A stretch of DNA of 64,000 bases from Candidatus Moraniibacteriota bacterium (GCA_035390125.1 DAOOTD010000002.1:169908-233907), one strand, 5' to 3'; shown: positions 12,088 to 20,954, numbered from the stretch's first letter. Notes: generated by a model from the sequence alone, not told the origin. Made by a program: numbers and translations.

Positions 12088-12162
12088 TCCGGCGTAGCGC
12101 AACGGTAGCGCAGGGGACTGTTAATCCCTTGGTTGTAGGTTCGAATCCTACCGCCGGAGCCA
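12088..12162 (+). tRNA. tRNA-Asn (anticodon GTT) with encoded CCA
   Basis: Hand-folded. Acceptor TCCGGCG/CGCCGGA, anticodon loop CTGTTAA, T-arm TAGGTTCGAATCCTA, 3' GCCA. Confidence 0.9.
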
Positions 12163-13632
12163 TTCTTTAGTTTTGGCATATTCCATTATGCCATTAAAGG
12201 GAGCTTTTACCTCAAATGAAAGCTTTCCTGCATTTAAAGTAAGGTTCTGAAGTAAGAAACCCAATAGTTGGGTTTTTTCTTGTGGTTCAGAATTTTGGAA
12301 CAATTCTAATGCCCTTTGCGACAAGTCTAATACTTTATTTGCTGTAAGACTGAAGTCTCTATCAGCGGACGAATGTTCCTGAAGTTGTGTATTTAAGTTT
12401 TCTCTTTCTTGTGTGTATTCAATAGCCATTTTGTCATATTCGTCCGCAGTAATACGTCCATCAAGTCTGTCTCTATACATAACCTTTAACCTTGCATCTA
12501 TATTGCCTATTTTTCTTTGAATAGTTGCTTTATTTTTCTCATAATACACTTTTTCAGCATCATGAATAGTTCTTAGCTCATCTTTGAGCCTATCAAGGGC
12601 TTCTGGCTCCAATTTTAAACTCTGAAATAGGTCTTTAGTTTGATCCACTAATTCATCTTCTCTCAACCACTTTATTCCTTTATCAGGACAAGTCCCGTAA
12701 TAATTAGTGCAATGATAGTAAACATGCCCTTTCTGAAGTTCTGGCGTAATTGCTAATCCGCAATGTGAACATTTTATCAATCCTCTGAAAATATATGGAT
12801 TGTTTGTTCGTTTGAAATTTTGCCTATTATAGCCGTTTATAACTTCTTGGACTTTTTCAAATAAATATCTTGAAACGATAGGTTGATATTTATGCGGATA
12901 TAGCTTACCCTTAACTCTCATTACGCCGTAATAGAACGGGTTTCTTAAAATTGCATGAACTTGGCTTGTTGTCATCTTCATTCCGCTCCTACTTCTCAAG
13001 CCTCTGTCGTTCATTTCCTGTGCAAGCTTTTTCATTGAAAATTTACCCGTGGCATACAACTGAAACATTTTTAGGACTAGAAATTCTTTGTCCTTGTCTA
13101 TGATAATATGCTTTTTTTCATTTTCCAGTGTTATATTTTTATATCCCAGATAGGCTTGTCCAATCCATTCGCCATTCCTTAATTTCTGCTCGTAAGCTCT
13201 TTTTACATTGTCGCTAATTGCATCAGAATAATATTTCGCCAGACCTAAATTTATTCCAAAATGAAATTTTTCTGCTGCCGATATATTTGAAGAGATAACA
13301 AGGTTGTCTGAAACAAAATGTAATTCTATTTTATCTTGCATTGCTAAATCATATAAAAGTGGAACGCGTTTATCAAAAACATTTCGCGTAAATCTATCTA
13401 CTTTGTCAAAACAGACTACAATTTTATCTTTGCTTTTCTTTACTAAATCAATTGCCTTATCAAATTCGTCTCTTTTTTGTTTATAGGCACTTTCATCAAA
13501 GCTAAAGATTTCTAAAACTGCAAAACCTTTTGTTTTGCAGTATTCTTTAAGCCTATGAATTTGAGCTGGTAGAGAGTTTCCGGCGTCTTTTTGTTCTTCT
13601 GTTGAAACTCTAGCTAATATTATCGCTTTCAT
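12148..13632 (-). CDS. large serine recombinase (resolvase/invertase-type N-terminal domain + recombinase domain + Zn ribbon); start at MKAIIL (track ORF extends to 13677)
   Basis: ILARVSTEEQ...GNSLPAQ catalytic Ser region, and a Cys cluster CSHCG...CTNYYGTC. Confidence 0.8.
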   Translation of the reverse strand: MKAIILARVSTEEQKDAGNSLPAQIHRLKEYCKTKGFAVLEIFSFDESAYKQKRDEFDKAIDLVKKSKDKIVVCFDKVDRFTRNVFDKRVPLLYDLAMQDKIELHFVSDNLVISSNISAAEKFHFGINLGLAKYYSDAISDNVKRAYEQKLRNGEWIGQAYLGYKNITLENEKKHIIIDKDKEFLVLKMFQLYATGKFSMKKLAQEMNDRGLRSRSGMKMTTSQVHAILRNPFYYGVMRVKGKLYPHKYQPIVSRYLFEKVQEVINGYNRQNFKRTNNPYIFRGLIKCSHCGLAITPELQKGHVYYHCTNYYGTCPDKGIKWLREDELVDQTKDLFQSLKLEPEALDRLKDELRTIHDAEKVYYEKNKATIQRKIGNIDARLKVMYRDRLDGRITADEYDKMAIEYTQERENLNTQLQEHSSADRDFSLTANKVLDLSQRALELFQNSEPQEKTQLLGFLLQNLTLNAGKLSFEVKAPFNGIMEYAKTKEWLRR

Positions 13633-15320
13633 TTTACGAATGCGTTTTGGACTGTTTGCGAAATTTGCTGATACCAATCTTTTTCATTTTCAGTTTTCAA
13701 CGCAAGATTAGATAGTGAATTAAACAAATTTTTTAAATCATCTGCTTTCGGTTTAATTGCGGAGCTATGGGCGTTTTTTAATAAACATTTGAAGTCCTCT
13801 AAACTTAAAGGTATTATTTGTGATTTTCCGCCATAATATTCTATGTTGATGCGATACAAACCGTAGTAGTGAGCAATGGTAGCATTATTCAAATTAGGAG
13901 CTACAAATATTCCAAATACAGGTTTTGAATTGCTTTTTTTATATTGACCATAGTGTCTTGCTACAGGCTCTCCTTCCATTTCATATTGTTTTTGTCCTGA
14001 TGATAGAGTGACTTCAACAATTGCATCAAAATCTTTATATTTACAAACTATATCGGGTGTGTTGCCTGGAGCTGTATATAATGGCATACCATCGTCATCA
14101 ATTTTAAAGTTTCCTTGAATATCTCCGTCGTTCAACATTGTAAAAGCTCTCCAAATATTCCATTCAAAGAAAAGAGATGGATCTATATTTTCTCTATTTA
14201 CAATACCTGAAAAAACTTCAAGTATATCATTATATTCTTCATAATTTCGTAATTTACTTTTTTCATTTTCAATATATTTTTCAAGACTCTCTTTGATTAG
14301 GCTTTCATAGATATTTTTCAAGTCTTCCGTGTCCTTCTCTTTGAGTGCCGAAACACTAACTCTTGTATCTTTCTGTGTAATTTTAGAAATTATCAAGTCT
14401 TTATTATCTACAAGAAGCAATGGCTTGCTCGCATCAAACAAATTCGCTTCATAATCTTCTTCATCTTTATATGCAAATATATCCCTATCAATATTCTTTA
14501 GAATAAATTCAATATCATTTTTTCTTTCTTTGAGAATGTATACTTTTGATGTTTTTGGATTTAACGAAAACAGTCCGGTAGCACGAAGATACCTAATAGA
14601 GGCATCGGCATAATCAAGATGATTACTTCGTTTAGTTTTAACAAAATTATCTAAAGTTTGTTCCTTACTTTCCCTTATTGATAACTTTCCTTGCTCAATG
14701 TCTTCCTTGAATAATTCAGTCAGCTCTTTCTCAAATTGCAAGGCGATAAATTTTTTATAATTTATCTTTTTTGTTCGCAATAACTTTTTTTCTTCTCTGA
14801 AATTGATAATTTTATTTTTTACATTATTGTATTTAGCAAAATCTGTAAGTTGAATAACAAATAGCCCTATCTCATGCTTGCTTAAACCGTCTAATTCATA
14901 AATAAGTCTCATTAACTCAAGGTAGGGCTTTATTCTAAATGTGTTATTTTTATCTTTATGATAAGGCGAATGAAGCTGGAACTTCAATAGCTGTCTTAAA
15001 AATATCTCTTCCGGTCTGTTTCCATAAACATATTTTTTTCCAGCTTCAGTAAGCTTGATAACTGGCTTTAAGTCAATCAATCCAAGAGATTTAGGAGCTC
15101 TGTTTACTCTATCTCTAGCCTTAAAAGCGACATCTCCAGTTGCTGAACCCTCAAAAAAATCTTGTTTAGCTAGTTGTAAATAAAACTTTTTTTGAGTCTC
15201 TGAATTCCATTTCTGACCTTCAAAATTTTCTGATAAAAATTTTATCTCATCAACCAGTTTGTGTGGTGACCTAGGCGAGGTAACGAAAAATATTGTTTTT
15301 TTATCTGTTATGTGAGCCAT
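13629..15320 (-). CDS. putative type II restriction endonuclease (possibly AlwI-family-like; identity uncertain)
   Basis: 563-aa protein immediately downstream of a DNA methyltransferase in the same operon. C-terminal TPDIV..DAIVEVT..QK resembles a PD-(D/E)xK core. Confidence 0.4.
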   Translation of the reverse strand: MAHITDKKTIFFVTSPRSPHKLVDEIKFLSENFEGQKWNSETQKKFYLQLAKQDFFEGSATGDVAFKARDRVNRAPKSLGLIDLKPVIKLTEAGKKYVYGNRPEEIFLRQLLKFQLHSPYHKDKNNTFRIKPYLELMRLIYELDGLSKHEIGLFVIQLTDFAKYNNVKNKIINFREEKKLLRTKKINYKKFIALQFEKELTELFKEDIEQGKLSIRESKEQTLDNFVKTKRSNHLDYADASIRYLRATGLFSLNPKTSKVYILKERKNDIEFILKNIDRDIFAYKDEEDYEANLFDASKPLLLVDNKDLIISKITQKDTRVSVSALKEKDTEDLKNIYESLIKESLEKYIENEKSKLRNYEEYNDILEVFSGIVNRENIDPSLFFEWNIWRAFTMLNDGDIQGNFKIDDDGMPLYTAPGNTPDIVCKYKDFDAIVEVTLSSGQKQYEMEGEPVARHYGQYKKSNSKPVFGIFVAPNLNNATIAHYYGLYRINIEYYGGKSQIIPLSLEDFKCLLKNAHSSAIKPKADDLKNLFNSLSNLALKTENEKDWYQQISQTVQNAFVK

Positions 15321-15347
15321 AATTATTTTTTTCTTATCGTTTATTAT

Positions 15348-16139
15348 TTACCAAAATATTTTCTCGTTATCTGGAATAGAGGAATTTTTTTGAAGAATAT
15401 CTTTTTTAAATTTAATATATTCTTTAATTCTCTTTTCCGATATTTCAATAGACTTGTTTGAGATATCACAGCCTATAAAATTACAATTATGTTTGATTGA
15501 AGAAATTGCTGCAGAGCCACTGCCTAAAAATGGGTCACAGACAACAAAGTTTGGTGAAGTGCTGGCACTTAACATTATGTCAAATAATTCAACCGGTTTC
15601 TGCGTAGGATACTTTGCTTGATGAACCCTCTTAATTCTCCAAACATCTGGAAATGAGCGGCTCTTTATCTTACGGTTGTTTTTATTTGTTGCAAAAATAA
15701 TAAATTCGTGTCGCCTTCTGAAATAATGTCCCATTCCTAAATTGACCTTATCCCAGGAAATAATATTTTTCACATCAAATAGTTCTCTTACTATTGGACC
15801 AAGCGAAAGAAGGGAGTAGGAATCAAACATTATATATAAATGACCTGAACTTTTCAGTGCTTTTTTGCACAATAGCAAAAAATTTCTATAATTTTCTTCT
15901 GTATCTTTGAATTCCTCAAACCATTTTCCATTTACTGTTCCTTTTTCGGCATATTTTCCAACAATTCTTCCGTTCCCCAAGCTTAAATGATTATTCATTC
16001 CTGAATAAGCTGGATCTGTTACAATAATGTCTATACTTTTTTCTGGCTGACTTTCAAGAAATTTTAATACATCATCGTGAACGATTTTTATTGTATTTTT
16101 TCCTTTATTATATTTGACCTCAAAAGATAATTTTCTCAT
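15348..16139 (-). CDS. beta-class N6-adenine/N4-cytosine DNA methyltransferase (N6_N4_Mtase family); start at MRKLSF (track ORF extends to 16160)
   Basis: Motif IV TDPAY (DPPY-like) at the N-terminus, YPTQKP, and motif I DPFLGSGSAA at the C-terminus; this motif order defines the beta class. Confidence 0.8.
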   Translation of the reverse strand: MRKLSFEVKYNKGKNTIKIVHDDVLKFLESQPEKSIDIIVTDPAYSGMNNHLSLGNGRIVGKYAEKGTVNGKWFEEFKDTEENYRNFLLLCKKALKSSGHLYIMFDSYSLLSLGPIVRELFDVKNIISWDKVNLGMGHYFRRRHEFIIFATNKNNRKIKSRSFPDVWRIKRVHQAKYPTQKPVELFDIMLSASTSPNFVVCDPFLGSGSAAISSIKHNCNFIGCDISNKSIEISEKRIKEYIKFKKDILQKNSSIPDNEKIFW

Positions 16140-16143
16140 AGAT

Positions 16144-16320
16144 TTATTTTGTTGATGCATTTTCTACAAAACTTTGAAACTCGTTCTTTTTAATACGAAA
16201 CTCTTTACCGAATTTATAAGCTTTAATTTTTCCAGCTTTAATGTAGCGATAAATAGTCATTATATTTACCCTTAAAATATCAGCTAATTCTTGAGCTGTG
16301 TAAAATTCTTTTTCTTGCAT
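16144..16320 (-). CDS. excisionase-family (HTH_17/MerR-like) DNA-binding protein, 58 aa; not in the ORF track because it is under 60 aa
   Basis: Hand translation gives MQEKEFYTAQELADILRVNIMTIYRYIKAGKIKAYKFGKEFRIKKNEFQSFVENASTK, which matches the HTH_17 consensus (sELAeiLgVsrrTIYRwikaGklpayKiGr.wRI). Its stop lies 4 nt before the methyltransferase ATG. Confidence 0.6.
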   Translation of the reverse strand: MQEKEFYTAQELADILRVNIMTIYRYIKAGKIKAYKFGKEFRIKKNEFQSFVENASTK

Positions 16321-16357
16321 ATGTTTATTTTTTAATTATAAGATACTTTACTTTTCT

Positions 16358-16558
16358 TTACAAGAAACAGTCCTTACGATCATTGCAACCACCACACGCA
16401 TCGCAATAATCATACTTTCCTATTACAGTAATCTCGTCCTCCAAGCCTCTTTTCTTTAGCTCCTTTCTTATTTCTTCAGCAGTTCGTCCTTGAAAAATTT
16501 CATCAAGCAACTCATCAGTGAGTTCAACTTTTTTCTTTTTTAAATTTTTTTTACTCAT
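16358..16558 (-). CDS. small CxxC-motif protein (YCDACGGCNDRKDC)
   Basis: 66-aa ORF between the Rep-like gene and the HTH gene, with a C-terminal 4-Cys cluster. Confidence 0.35.
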   Translation of the reverse strand: MSKKNLKKKKVELTDELLDEIFQGRTAEEIRKELKKRGLEDEITVIGKYDYCDACGGCNDRKDCFL

Positions 16559-16576: not shown

Positions 16577-17722
16577 TTAACTCGTAATTTGCTCTTTCTT
16601 AAAGACATCAAATTTTTTTAATCCTTCTTCAATATCCTTCAAATAAAGCTCTGGCGACAATGCGTTTGTATTTAATGCTATTGCATTTAATTCTTTCAAG
16701 TGCTTGTTTACATTATTCCAAGAGCCTTTTCCGAATTTGTCCTCTATAATCTGACGAAACAATTCTGCACCCTCGCTCTTGCAAAAATCTTTGATAGCAT
16801 ACAGAGCTACTGCTTTTGTAGGTCTTCCATTTTGATTTGCGATATAATCAGAAATTTCCATAAGCTCATCTTTCTTGCTTTTGTTTTGCTGAAAGAGATG
16901 CAGGTTTCTTTCTTGGACAAGCGTATTCCAATAATCAAGCAAAACTTTTTGGCAAACATCTTTTTTAAAAATATCTCTGAAGTTTGGATTTTTGCCAAAT
17001 CCTATTTTTTCCAAAACCGTGTCCATTTTTCTTTTTTGCGAAAGCCTAACCTCCATTTTAAGAATTTCAATGTCAGTCTTTCTTCGCCACTCGTTTATCT
17101 GACAAAACAAACTTTTTTGATTTCCTTTCATATCGTGGTCAATTGACCTTTTTTCGTCTTTTCCCATATCGGCGATTTTATCGTAGAAAACTAGGGAGTG
17201 AGATTTTGAATAATACTGAAGTGAATGACCGCCGTTGCGAAAATCCGTCTTTGTCAGATCCAACCTCTTTGTTAGCTGTATTTTGGAAAGCTCTTTGATT
17301 GCCATTGTAGCTGTTATGTAGCCGTTTAACTCAATGTTTTTTGAGGCGTGAAATCCGGACACAGTAGCTTCCGCTAAATTATCTCGCATAATATAGACAC
17401 CTTTTTTGATTAGTTTTTCCTGTAATTTGAGGATAACTTCTTCAAAATCACTTTCTTTAATTTCGTCTAGATTATTCTGAAATAGTAACTTTGGAACTGA
17501 AAATTCAACTCTTAAACCGATATTTATTCCCATTCTTGAAGGTCGTCTATAGAGTGTCATTCTTGGATAATATTCCCATTTTGATTCTTCCTTTGAAGGA
17601 TTGTTAACGGCTTTGCCATATCCGGCATCAGATAAAAAGTCTTTCGCGTTAGGAAAAAACATTTCTGGCGTCCAAATATCAAACTTATCAAGTGGAAAAT
17701 TCAAGATTACTGTGTCTAGCAT
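16577..17722 (-). CDS. putative rolling-circle replication initiation protein (gpII/Phage_CRI or Rep_trans-like)
   Basis: N-terminus MLDTVILNFPLDKFDIW resembles the MIDxLVLRLPF start of filamentous-phage gpII-type Rep proteins. Context is a mobile element. Confidence 0.35.
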   Translation of the reverse strand: MLDTVILNFPLDKFDIWTPEMFFPNAKDFLSDAGYGKAVNNPSKEESKWEYYPRMTLYRRPSRMGINIGLRVEFSVPKLLFQNNLDEIKESDFEEVILKLQEKLIKKGVYIMRDNLAEATVSGFHASKNIELNGYITATMAIKELSKIQLTKRLDLTKTDFRNGGHSLQYYSKSHSLVFYDKIADMGKDEKRSIDHDMKGNQKSLFCQINEWRRKTDIEILKMEVRLSQKRKMDTVLEKIGFGKNPNFRDIFKKDVCQKVLLDYWNTLVQERNLHLFQQNKSKKDELMEISDYIANQNGRPTKAVALYAIKDFCKSEGAELFRQIIEDKFGKGSWNNVNKHLKELNAIALNTNALSPELYLKDIEEGLKKFDVFKKEQITS

Positions 17723-17907
17723 AATTTTGCGTTATTTTCATTATTCGTCTTATTTGAGCTATTTTCCTTTTGTTGTTCATTTATTCGTTTGTCAATTCTA
17801 AAAAGCAAGTCAAAAAATCCCACAAAATTGTGCTTTGCTTCAAATACTTCCTTGTTAGAAAGCGTCTTTTTGCTTAATTTCTCATAGAATTCCTTGTCAG
17901 ATAACAT
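17716..17907 (-). CDS. small hypothetical protein, first gene of the island operon
   Basis: 63-aa ORF overlapping the Rep start by 7 nt. Confidence 0.25.
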   Translation of the reverse strand: MLSDKEFYEKLSKKTLSNKEVFEAKHNFVGFFDLLFRIDKRINEQQKENSSNKTNNENNAKLC

Positions 17908-17910
17908 AAA

Positions 17911-17932
17911 ACCAGCAACTTTAAATTGCTGG
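17911..17932. promoter_or_regulatory. 7-bp perfect inverted repeat CCAGCAA-N7-TTGCTGG just upstream of the island operon (operator or candidate nick/origin hairpin)
   Basis: Seen directly in sequence at 17912-17918 and 17926-17932. Confidence 0.3.
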
Positions 17933-18222
17933 CTTCTGAAGACAAAAAAAGAGACAACAGAGGCTAATCAACTTAAAGTTGAATGCTTTGTTATCTCAAA
18001 GGCTGTATGCAGGTTAAGATTGCTGTAGTGCCCTAGGGCGACTTATAGTATTAACGTTCCAAGTCTTATATTGAGCTAAATCAAAACTTTATTAACTTTT
18101 TAAGGCTTATATATACAATATCATACAAAAATAGACTTTGTCAAGGTGTAGTTATTTTGTTATAAATTTAATTTTTAAGCCAAAAAATGGCTTAAATAAG
18201 CTGTCGCGCAGCTGAACATTCA

Positions 18223-20003: not shown

Positions 20004-20045
20004 ACCCGCCGGCAGAAAATCTGCTTTGGTGGGTTTTCTGTTTTT
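20004..20045 (+). terminator. hairpin + T-run terminator (CCCGCCGGCAG...CTGCTTTGGTGGG TTTTCTGTTTTT)
   Basis: Imperfect GC-rich stem followed by a T-tract. The 3' arm and T-tract are the start of the 52-bp repeat. Confidence 0.45.
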
Positions 20046-20073
20046 ATATCAAACTTAAATTAAATTCTTCCAA
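20022..20073 (+). repeat. copy 1 of a 52-bp direct repeat (TGCTTTGGTGGGTTTTCTGTTTTTATATCAAACTTAAATTAAATTCTTCCAA)
   Basis: 51 of 52 nt identical to 20761-20812. Confidence 0.8.
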
Positions 20074-20178
20074 AATTTTCCAAAACTTTACTCACTTAAA
20101 AGTGCTCAATTTTTAGTATGGGCATCATATTTTAATGGCTTATTTAAGCCTTTTTTTATTTAATTTATTAATTGCTTG

Positions 20179-20206
20179 TTGACATAAAGTTTAATTTATG
20201 TATAAT
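20179..20206 (+). promoter_or_regulatory. consensus sigma70 promoter (TTGACA-16-TATAAT, TG immediately upstream of the -10)
   Basis: TTGACA at 20179-20184 and TATAAT at 20201-20206. GGAGG RBS precedes the TTG start at 20259. Confidence 0.55.
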
Positions 20207-20258
20207 AAAAAATCTGATTCATTATGGATCAGAAATATTATAATTAGGAGGTAGTAAC

Positions 20259-20717
20259 TTGGAAAAAGCAATCGAAGCGGTAAAGGGTTCATTTTTGGCT
20301 GATGTTTTGGGCTTTATTGGCAAAGGAGTTTTTCCTAGCGTTGGAGCAGCCGTAAAGGAGAATGAAGAGGTAATCGGCGATATGAGTCTTTTCGAAAAAG
20401 GCTTGCTAGCTTACGCAGATTTCTGCGGTAAAAAAGAAGAAGAACTGGTAGAACAGCTCAATAAGATGAAAGAAAAAAACGAGCAGGAGTCGCCGGAATT
20501 CAAGCCGAAGCATAATGAGCTTAAAACTATCAGGGAAAATTTTGAGATTTCCAATGAGCTCATGTGGAATTCGATAAGGGGAAGATTTGGCGTTTGGGAC
20601 TGCGGCACCGGCATAAGAGATGGCTATAAAGTCATCAAGATGAGCAAAAATCTGCTCGGGGCCGGTTTTCCTGATCTTGGAGGCATCTCCATAATTCATG
20701 TGAGTCTGAAGGATTAA
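20259..20717 (+). CDS. hypothetical 152-aa protein (TTG start)
   Basis: ORF with RBS TAGGAGGT 6 nt upstream; no recognisable family. Confidence 0.4.
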   Translation: MEKAIEAVKGSFLADVLGFIGKGVFPSVGAAVKENEEVIGDMSLFEKGLLAYADFCGKKEEELVEQLNKMKEKNEQESPEFKPKHNELKTIRENFEISNELMWNSIRGRFGVWDCGTGIRDGYKVIKMSKNLLGAGFPDLGGISIIHVSLKD

Positions 20718-20742
20718 GTAAAGTTACTTTATTATAATATAA

Positions 20743-20785
20743 CCCACCAGCAAGGAAACTTGCTTTGGTGGGTTTTCTGTTTTTA
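20743..20785 (+). terminator. rho-independent terminator (CCCACCAGCAAG-GAAA-CTTGCTTTGGTGGG followed by TTTTCTGTTTTT)
   Basis: 12-bp stem and T-run; overlaps repeat copy 2. Confidence 0.6.
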
Positions 20786-20812
20786 TATCCAACTTAAATT
20801 AAATTCTTCCAA
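20761..20812 (+). repeat. copy 2 of the 52-bp direct repeat
   Basis: 51 of 52 nt identical to 20022-20073. Confidence 0.8.
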
Positions 20813-20954
20813 TAATTCACCAAATTATCTATAATTAAAAGTTATAATTTTTTTACTAAATTGAACCAAATAAAACACACTTTTTATGGGGTTATTTTTT
20901 ATACCAGAGTAGGATGATAGAATTTATGTTATAATAAACCTAGTAATAATTTTT

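Follow-up and report, generated by a model that had tools for sequence, protein, structure and literature searches.

A 58-aa excisionase-family helix-turn-helix protein as operon leader and probable autorepressor in a tRNA-Asn-associated element of a Candidatus Moraniibacteriota bacterium

In a 64-kb stretch of DNA from a Candidatus Moraniibacteriota bacterium, which was analysed in its full length and is called the window here, a gene of only 58 codons stands directly ahead of a methyltransferase, a restriction endonuclease and a large serine recombinase. Its product belongs to a protein family that is named after excisionases. This raises the question of what a small DNA-binding protein does at such a position, i.e., whether it assists excision, times restriction-modification (R-M) genes, serves replication or regulates transcription. 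The reading that we favour, to which we assign a probability of about 0.6, is that this helix-turn-helix (HTH) protein leads its operon and is probably an autorepressor within a small integrative element at tRNA-Asn.

The HTH gene and its neighbourhood

The gene had been proposed in a first-pass annotation on the basis of a hand translation. The ORF listing of the window contains an ATG-initiated frame of 58 codons at this position, its translation is identical to the one made by hand, and its location between an ORF with a CxxC motif and the methyltransferase gene was likewise borne out (Table 1). The gene had also been called unannotated, which is accurate for the ORF track of the first stage, where it is absent because a 60-aa cut-off was used. 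It is not accurate for public databases: the identical protein, from a MAG, is held at NCBI as a helix-turn-helix domain-containing protein of Candidatus Moranbacteria bacterium, and gene callers placed it on 14 public contigs with identical neighbours. It is an ordinary small HTH protein that is already in public annotation.

Table 1. Coordinates of the HTH gene, its neighbours and the associated promoter elements, counted from the first nucleotide of the window.
Feature	Position	Strand	Evidence
Upstream sigma-70-like promoter (TTGACA ...) for the 63-aa, 381-aa and 66-aa genes	18115..18144	-	promoter scan 10/12
63-aa ORF that opens the upstream (Rep) transcription unit	17716..17907	-	ORF listing; homolog in 4/80 loci
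381-aa conserved backbone protein, Rep-like	16577..17722	-	co-directional homolog upstream in 40/80 loci
66-aa CxxC ORF, located between Rep-like gene and HTH promoter	16358..16558	-	ORF listing
Sigma-70-type promoter of the HTH operon	16335..16363	-	promoter scan 10/12; homologous to family consensus
Putative operator, a pair of direct 7-mers with a 10-bp period: TGTAAAG (16362-16356), AAA, AGTAAAG (16352-16346)	16346..16362	-	motif match
HTH_17/excisionase-family winged-helix gene (feature under study)	16144..16320	-	ORF listing, HTH_17, TIGR01764, AF2, pN/pS
Type II N4/N6 DNA methyltransferase, first cargo gene	15348..16139	-	PF01555 93 bits; PADLOC MTase_II 373 bits
AlwI-family Type II restriction/nicking endonuclease, second cargo gene	13629..15320	-	PF09491 RE_AlwI 208.9 bits; PADLOC REase_II
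Large serine recombinase (integrase)	12148..13632	-	Resolvase, Recombinase and Zn_ribbon_recom domains; PHROG 95 integrase 271 bits
tRNA-Asn(GTT), integration target/attL side	12088..12162	+	ARAGORN; Rfam tRNA 72.7 bits

The assignment to the HTH_17/excisionase family, for which a profile search had been suggested, was confirmed. The protein scored 52.8 bits against the Pfam profile HTH_17 (PF12728; gathering cut-off 27), with residues 6-55 covering positions 1-50 of 51 and therefore nearly the whole model, and 51.4 bits against the NCBIfam domain model TIGR01764 'excise' (excisionase family DNA-binding protein; cut-off 28.8). It also grouped with the 'excisionase and transcriptional regulator' families of PHROGs (PHROG 66). 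A Pfam search gave no match to the Xre-type HTH_3 family at E <= 0.01. Narrower assignments were rejected: the protein lies outside the BldC subfamily (NCBIfam NF033787, 17.6 bits against a cut-off of 77) and below the equivalog cut-off of MADS MAD1 (NF047737, 29.6 against 80 bits). The PADLOC mad1 profile reached 34 bits over residues 3-36 only. The neighbouring genes encode an AlwI-type endonuclease and an unremarkable Type II methyltransferase.

Database searches returned 1269 relatives at E <= 1e-3, and the best 120 of these are 57-88 aa long (nearly all 57-64) and 69-88% identical to the HTH protein. Across orthologs from 80 loci (3160 pairwise comparisons; the loci are described below), pN was 0.16 and pS was 0.86, values that point to purifying selection with synonymous differences near saturation. 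In view of the 1269 relatives and the low pN relative to pS, the 58-codon ORF is a genuine gene, as opposed to a frame that is open by chance. It is present in a single copy within the window.

All genes between 17907 and 12148 lie on the minus strand and are densely packed. The HTH gene heads the methyltransferase, endonuclease and recombinase genes behind a conserved sigma-70-type promoter, with successive gaps of 4, 27 and -4 nt: the methyltransferase ATG follows the HTH stop codon after 4 nt (an alternative ATG at 16160 would overlap the HTH gene), and the start of the recombinase overlaps the stop of the endonuclease. Read as its reverse complement, the 3′ end of tRNA-Asn supplies the final four codons and the stop codon of the recombinase (W-L-R-R-stop). 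Because the 3′ end of the recombinase gene lies inside the tRNA gene in this way, the locus has the arrangement of an element integrated in a tRNA gene. A search of the window with 25- and 15-nt probes from the 3′ end of tRNA-Asn, at up to 3 mismatches, yielded no second, displaced copy, no exact repeat was longer than 8 nt, and the element in the window may be decayed. We also observed a 101-nt direct repeat of 80% identity at 20014-20114 and 20753-20853, 739 nt apart; the far end of the element might lie in this region (20014-20853). The tRNA was the only known RNA that Rfam matched in the island.

Upstream of the HTH promoter, the 66-aa CxxC ORF had no family match in Pfam, NCBIfam, PADLOC or PHROG and no homolog in the 80 loci, and it appears to be specific to the lineage of the window; unrelated small ORFs occupy this position in other elements. 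The preceding 381-aa protein may be a divergent rolling-circle Rep-like initiator. Three of its residues (Y180-D181-K182) are invariant among homologs, and matches to Rep_trans and Phage_CRI are weak hints. Its AF2 model has a pLDDT of 91, the best match among solved structures being an unconvincing TBP-like fold (E 0.014). The idea of an inovirus-like prophage was considered and dropped, the 381-aa protein having only one relative among 2.9 million IMG/VR contigs; a survey paper on inoviruses offered no specific connection. The transcription unit of the 381-aa protein has, ahead of the 63-aa ORF, a non-coding leader of 315 nt (17908-18222, minus strand); this leader contains the TTGACA promoter and has no Rfam match. 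Two hairpins were noticed there: one at 18196-18174, immediately ahead of the promoter, resembles a terminator, and the other, of 13 bp (17936-17908), ends at the ATG of the 63-aa ORF.

Related loci and the genes behind the HTH gene

Relatives of the HTH gene were sought in a scan of one genome per species, which yielded 331 loci. The best 80 of these were analysed, and almost all of them belong to CPR/Patescibacteria. A co-directional gene follows the HTH gene in 77 of the 80 loci, and the remaining three contigs stop just past the HTH gene. The spacing is tight, with -26 to +24 nt between the two genes in 74 of these 77 loci and 1-5 nt in 50 of them. What follows at this spacing varies widely, from products of 65 aa to products of 1160 aa. 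Among the 74 next genes tested for domains, methylase and Eco57I domains were frequent (N6_N4_Mtase 17, N6_Mtase 12, Eco57I 8, D12 4 and C5 2), accompanied by helicases and nucleases (PLD+SNF2 7, ResIII 6, Mrr 2, HindIII 1, Tsp45I 1, and also HSDR_N); in 10 of the 74 the next gene was a large serine recombinase. Three closer homologs likewise had three unrelated defence cassettes behind the HTH gene. We saw no recombination site at the junction between HTH gene and cargo, only the conserved C-terminus and stop codon with an ATG 1-5 nt later.

A homolog of the recombinase in the window was present in 59 of the 80 loci and lay downstream in the same direction in 53 of these, where its start lay up to 6.6 kb past the HTH stop codon or, at the other extreme, overlapped this codon. 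Where the recombinase is present, its 3′ end is in most loci abutted or overlapped by a tRNA gene that runs on the other strand. The target is most often tRNA-Asn, and tRNAs for Gln, His, Leu, Asp and Ser also occur. Three loci (L039, L054 and L070) have exact 14-16-nt repeats of the tRNA end that bound elements of approximately 6 kb. The interval between the HTH gene and the recombinase is, in the relatives, a variable cargo slot filled mostly with R-M and other defence genes, and the conserved unit is accordingly composed of a Rep-like gene, the promoter with its putative operator, the HTH gene, variable cargo, a large serine recombinase and a tRNA gene.

The first-pass annotation had anticipated that a small HTH gene, a methyltransferase and an endonuclease would keep their order in other CPR islands. 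The HTH ORF is kept in homologous islands, but this gene order is not: homologs of the methyltransferase and the endonuclease were found in 7 and 2 of the 80 loci, respectively. In one locus (L097, 8180-10700), both genes could be compared with 13629-16139 of the window. The methyltransferases are 68% and the endonucleases 62% identical, compared to 39-47% for backbone genes, which suggests that the methyltransferase-endonuclease cassette moves between backbones.

These data bear on the idea that the HTH protein is a dedicated R-M controller, analogous to the C proteins, that times the endonuclease relative to the methyltransferase upon entry into a new host. Such a role would agree with its place directly ahead of both genes in the window, with the fact that the next gene encodes a methyltransferase, a restriction enzyme or a defence helicase in approximately two thirds of the 74 loci, and with the weak matches to the MADS MAD1 HTH protein. 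The C proteins themselves are HTH dimers of the Xre type; their binding sites, the C-boxes, are inverted repeats, and they act mainly as activators. The likeness consists of a small DNA-binding leader gene, an operator at its own promoter and R-M genes downstream. The protein studied here differs in that it belongs to HTH_17 and not to HTH_3, in that its putative operator, described below, is a direct repeat and not an inverted-repeat C-box, and in that it belongs to the backbone of the element. Because the HTH gene and its putative operator precede unrelated Type I, II, IIG, III and IV systems, we regard the gene as part of the backbone and not of any one R-M system. The 10 loci with the recombinase directly next to the HTH gene have no R-M gene and lack cargo altogether, and the MAD1 score falls far below its cut-off. 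Moreover, because endonuclease and methyltransferase both lie downstream in one unit, the HTH protein alone cannot delay the one relative to the other. Dedicated R-M control is accordingly an explanation that we hold to be very unlikely, although the HTH protein would in practice still govern expression of the R-M cassette.

A tandem repeat in the promoter spacer

To characterize the region ahead of the HTH gene, k-mers were counted in the 3 kb upstream of HTH genes and the upstream regions were then aligned. The resulting family consensus, TTGcta-TGTAAAG-nAt-tGTAAAG-TATAAT (with the separator of the repeats also given as nnn), is that of a sigma-70-type promoter in which two direct 7-mers, repeated with a period of 10 bp, make up the 17-nt spacer. 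In 980 kb of loci, the pattern WGTAAAS-N3-WGTAAAS occurred 84 times on the strand of the HTH gene and once on the opposite strand, compared to 0.17 occurrences expected from shuffled sequences. In 63 of the 80 loci, the 900 nt ahead of the HTH start contain the tandem repeat; it leads directly into TATAAT (with at most 1 mismatch) in 61 of these 63, and TTG stands at the -35 position in 50. The exact motif is absent from the 900 nt upstream in the other 17 loci, some of which have versions with one mismatch. Where the site does not adjoin the HTH gene, one small gene intervenes between promoter and HTH gene. No tandem repeat was found downstream of the HTH start.

The window contains one exact match to this pattern in its 64 kb, located in the promoter of the HTH operon. 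This promoter consists of a -35 element TTGTAA (16363-16358), a 17-nt spacer and a -10 element TATAAT (16340-16335), and the HTH ATG follows 14 nt past the -10 element. Compared with the family consensus, the -35 element is displaced onto the first repeat, which also contains the stop codon of the 66-aa ORF, and the position of the consensus -10 element reads TATCTT. Because of this shifted -35 element and the TATCTT sequence, the promoter in the window may be weaker, or transcription that starts at the upstream promoter (18144), which lacks TGTAAAG repeats, may partly read through it.

A second copy of the repeat pair, typically TGTAAACTAAAGTAAAG, was found in 21 loci (among them L018, L025, L044, L058 and L097) at 2-3 kb upstream of the HTH gene. 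It mostly lacks a -10 box and ends 1-19 nt ahead of the ATG of another ORF, the exception being L075 with a distance of approximately 67 nt. The ORFs behind this copy are variable, encode 160-480 aa, lie upstream of the Rep-like gene and matched no Pfam family. The window has neither the second copy nor its ORF. The position of a second repeat pair before the ATG of another backbone gene in about 21 relatives suggests that the HTH protein co-regulates a second gene of the element.

The putative target is a short direct repeat, and the HTH protein might alternatively be a replication or partition accessory of the excised element, for example one that binds iterons or a centromere, comparable to pSK1 Par or RacA and acting together with the Rep-like 381-aa protein. 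The DNA-binding domain of pSK1 Par and RacA are among its fold neighbours, and a Rep-like gene lies just upstream in half of the loci (40 of 80). The geometry is that of a promoter, however, with two repeats per site placed exactly between the -35 and -10 elements in 61 of 63 cases; the module is also present in elements that lack the Rep-like gene, and no gene for a partner ATPase was seen. We give this alternative hardly any weight. The repeats could also belong to another factor or be a feature of the spacer that is read by RNA polymerase. We infer the pairing of the HTH protein with the repeats from their co-occurrence in the sequences and by analogy to the systems described in the next section.

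Fold, closest known systems and likely function

The AF2 model of the HTH protein (pLDDT 89.9) has the topology b1-a1-a2-b2-b3-a3, in which a2 would be the recognition helix and b2-b3 the wing, and predicts a winged-helix fold of the MerR/Xis type. Foldseek returned a probability of 1.00 for BldC, Pukovnik Xis, RacA and RdfS. The best structural matches were BldC on direct-repeat DNA (TM 0.72-0.77), with Pukovnik Xis second, and further neighbours included RacA, pSK1 Par, RdfS, TraN, P2 Cox and the N-terminal domains of MerR proteins. An alignment of 45 homologs contained 16 invariant residues, and 11 of these lie in or next to the predicted recognition helix (N19, M21, T22, I23, Y24, R25 and Y26) and wing (K36, G38, K39 and R42).

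The closest relatives from annotated phages are the gp1 proteins of the betatectiviruses GIL01, GIL16, Bam35 and AP50, which are 41-44% identical to the HTH protein. The tblastn matches to gp1 covered 50-51 of the 58 residues (E 4e-5 to 5e-7), with 44% identity over 50 residues for GIL01. In GIL01, gp1 (58 aa) is encoded by the first gene behind the strong promoter P2 and represses P2 from a direct-repeat nucleation site; it polymerises over the -35 element and the transcribed region and so exerts negative feedback on replication and regulatory genes (PMC11511902). The likeness extends from the length of 58 aa and the winged HTH fold to the position as first gene and a direct-repeat site, putative in our case, at the -35 element and spacer. 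There are differences as well: gp1 forms a filament of seven subunits over 65 bp, whereas the site described here has two 7-mers within a 17-nt spacer; GIL01 is a linear, non-integrating Bacillus phage and not an integrative element of CPR bacteria; and the genes downstream are replication and regulatory genes instead of R-M or defence cargo and a serine recombinase.

The second informative relative is BldC of Streptomyces, a MerR-like winged HTH protein without dimerisation or effector domains that is 26-28% identical to the protein studied here. BldC, which consists of the winged HTH domain alone, binds direct repeats of 10-bp period in a head-to-tail manner (PMC5859096). It differs in being a chromosomal, pleiotropic regulator of development, whereas the HTH protein leads the operon of a mobile element. 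Our best reading, which is based on analogy, is that the HTH protein would work most like GIL01 gp1 and BldC.

The family name points to a different function. According to this alternative, the HTH protein is an excisionase, or recombination directionality factor (RDF), that switches the serine recombinase from integration to excision, either exclusively or in addition to regulation as in Apl, Cox and RdfS. The protein passes the TIGR01764 cut-off and falls into PHROG 66, and its only sequence-level match in the PDB, 4J2N (E 8.6e-5, 58 aa), is named Pukovnik Xis in the Foldseek table. That this closest solved sequence relative is a true excisionase is a point against an autorepressor. In addition, the integrase is encoded in the operon of the HTH gene within a tRNA-integrated element, serine recombinases are present in 59 of the 80 loci and adjacent in 10, and five loci with the class-B recombinase, in which HTH and recombinase genes overlap by 11 nt, share a distinct HTH tail (...TNGK/R). 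RDFs that act on serine integrases are small proteins of diverse structure (bioRxiv 10.1101/2025.01.03.631226), so that the fold is compatible with such a role.

The known excisionases nevertheless differ from the HTH protein in several respects. The mycobacteriophage Xis proteins (Pukovnik gp37, L5/D29 gp36) share membership in the TIGR01764 family with it. They partner with tyrosine integrases and bind arrays of sites in attP and attR, thereby bending the DNA. The HTH protein, in contrast, is associated with a large serine recombinase, and no tandem TGTAAAG sites were found at the ends of the elements. Apl of phage 186, P2 Cox and the ICE protein RdfS are similarly small winged HTH proteins that recognise direct repeats spaced by one helical turn; they act with tyrosine recombinases and have sites at both promoters and att, whereas the sites described here are confined to the promoter and a gene's 5′ end. 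Tandem TGTAAAG repeats were found neither near the tRNA junction of the window nor near the 14-16-nt repeats that end the elements of L039, L054 and L070. One Xis homolog, Gp36 of D29, is itself a transcriptional repressor that acts on direct repeats (PMC12266134).

Conservation argues in the same direction. The known RDFs of large serine integrases bind DBD2 and the coiled-coil of the integrase, not DNA, and vary between systems (bioRxiv 10.1101/2025.01.03.631226). Because of this contact, an RDF should co-evolve with its integrase. Across the 80 loci, the median identity was 68% for the HTH protein compared to 44% for the recombinase (and 38% for the Rep-like protein). The HTH-operator module was found with two classes of serine recombinase that are only 24-26% identical to each other, with a tyrosine integrase (L008) and, in L012-L017, with no visible integrase in the 6-kb flanks. 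Finally, the closest characterised homolog comes from a phage that persists as a linear extrachromosomal prophage (PMC11511902), and because GIL01 is not integrated, its gp1 is not an excisionase. Excision is therefore possible but unsupported as the primary role, and we regard it as unlikely. The label 'excisionase' used in the first-pass annotation stands as the name of a fold and family, but the evidence favours a transcriptional autoregulator over an excision factor.

Autorepression is the best-supported reading because a two-repeat site fills the spacer of a near-consensus promoter and because invariance extends equally to the DNA word and to the predicted DNA-binding surface of the protein. 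By analogy to BldC, Xis and GIL01 gp1, two or more HTH monomers would occupy the repeats in a head-to-tail manner, and the bound protein would block RNA polymerase at the -35 element and spacer. After entry of the element into a naive cell, the promoter would fire, and the HTH protein, the methyltransferase, the endonuclease and the integrase would be made. The build-up of the HTH protein would then exert negative feedback that holds the promoter at a low steady level, so that the protein would set the expression of all genes coupled behind the promoter, i.e., those for methyltransferase, endonuclease and integrase. It may also act on the second element gene that has a repeat pair at its ATG in about 21 relatives. 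It is possible that the HTH protein activates instead of represses its promoter.

Within the literature searched, we found no relevant prior description of integrative elements with serine recombinases in CPR bacteria, nor of a CPR-wide element family with a fixed cargo slot and a conserved promoter-operator. As a tentative extension that we consider possible but would not bet on, the HTH gene and its two-repeat promoter may form a portable, self-limiting module that defines the cargo slot in a widespread, undescribed family of small tRNA-integrating elements (approximately 6 kb plus cargo) of CPR/Patescibacteria. If this is true, cargo between the HTH stop codon and the recombinase would be translationally coupled to the HTH gene, expressed in a burst on entry and throttled thereafter. 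Such cargo would span Type I, II, IIG, III and IV restriction systems and PLD-SNF2 helicases, and the elements would be a main vehicle by which defence systems are exchanged among lineages mostly devoid of CRISPR. In that case, the HTH protein would gate the establishment of integrase and defence genes, and it might double as a recombinase directionality factor.

The value of the locus lies more in the conserved putative operator and the cargo-slot architecture than in the HTH gene itself. The gene is a marker of compact integrative elements; the scan of species-representative genomes gave 331 relatives, almost all of them from CPR bacteria. In these elements, very diverse restriction and defence cassettes occupy one and the same position, behind a promoter and putative operator that are strongly conserved. 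The combination of TTGcta-TGTAAAG-nnn-TGTAAAG-TATAAT with a 58-aa HTH gene could serve as a signature with which uncultivated CPR genomes are searched for mobile elements and defence cargo, and the putative protein-operator pair with its near-consensus promoter might be used as a genetic part where tools are absent. For annotation, the label 'excisionase family' is no proof of a function in excision when the partner is a serine recombinase.

Two further observations concern the distribution of the HTH gene. Nine loci (L020, L036, L045, L060, L068, L072, L074, L085 and L088) represent a second type of element, in which the HTH gene is followed directly by a distant serine recombinase and a homolog of the 381-aa protein is missing. 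The repeat pair lies upstream of the HTH gene in all of them except L074, the HTH and recombinase genes overlap by 11 nt in six of the nine, and tRNA-Gln (4 loci), tRNA-Asn or tRNA-Ser lies next to those in which a neighbouring tRNA was identified. The class-B recombinase loci with the 11-nt overlap and the distinct C-terminal HTH tail are L020, L036, L045, L060 and L072. In addition, close relatives of the HTH gene occur in bins assigned to DPANN archaea (Woesearchaeota, Pacearchaeota) or to non-CPR bacteria (L034, L055, L028, L040, L041, L051, L080, L082 and L092), which could reflect misbinning or transfer between lineages that share habitats.
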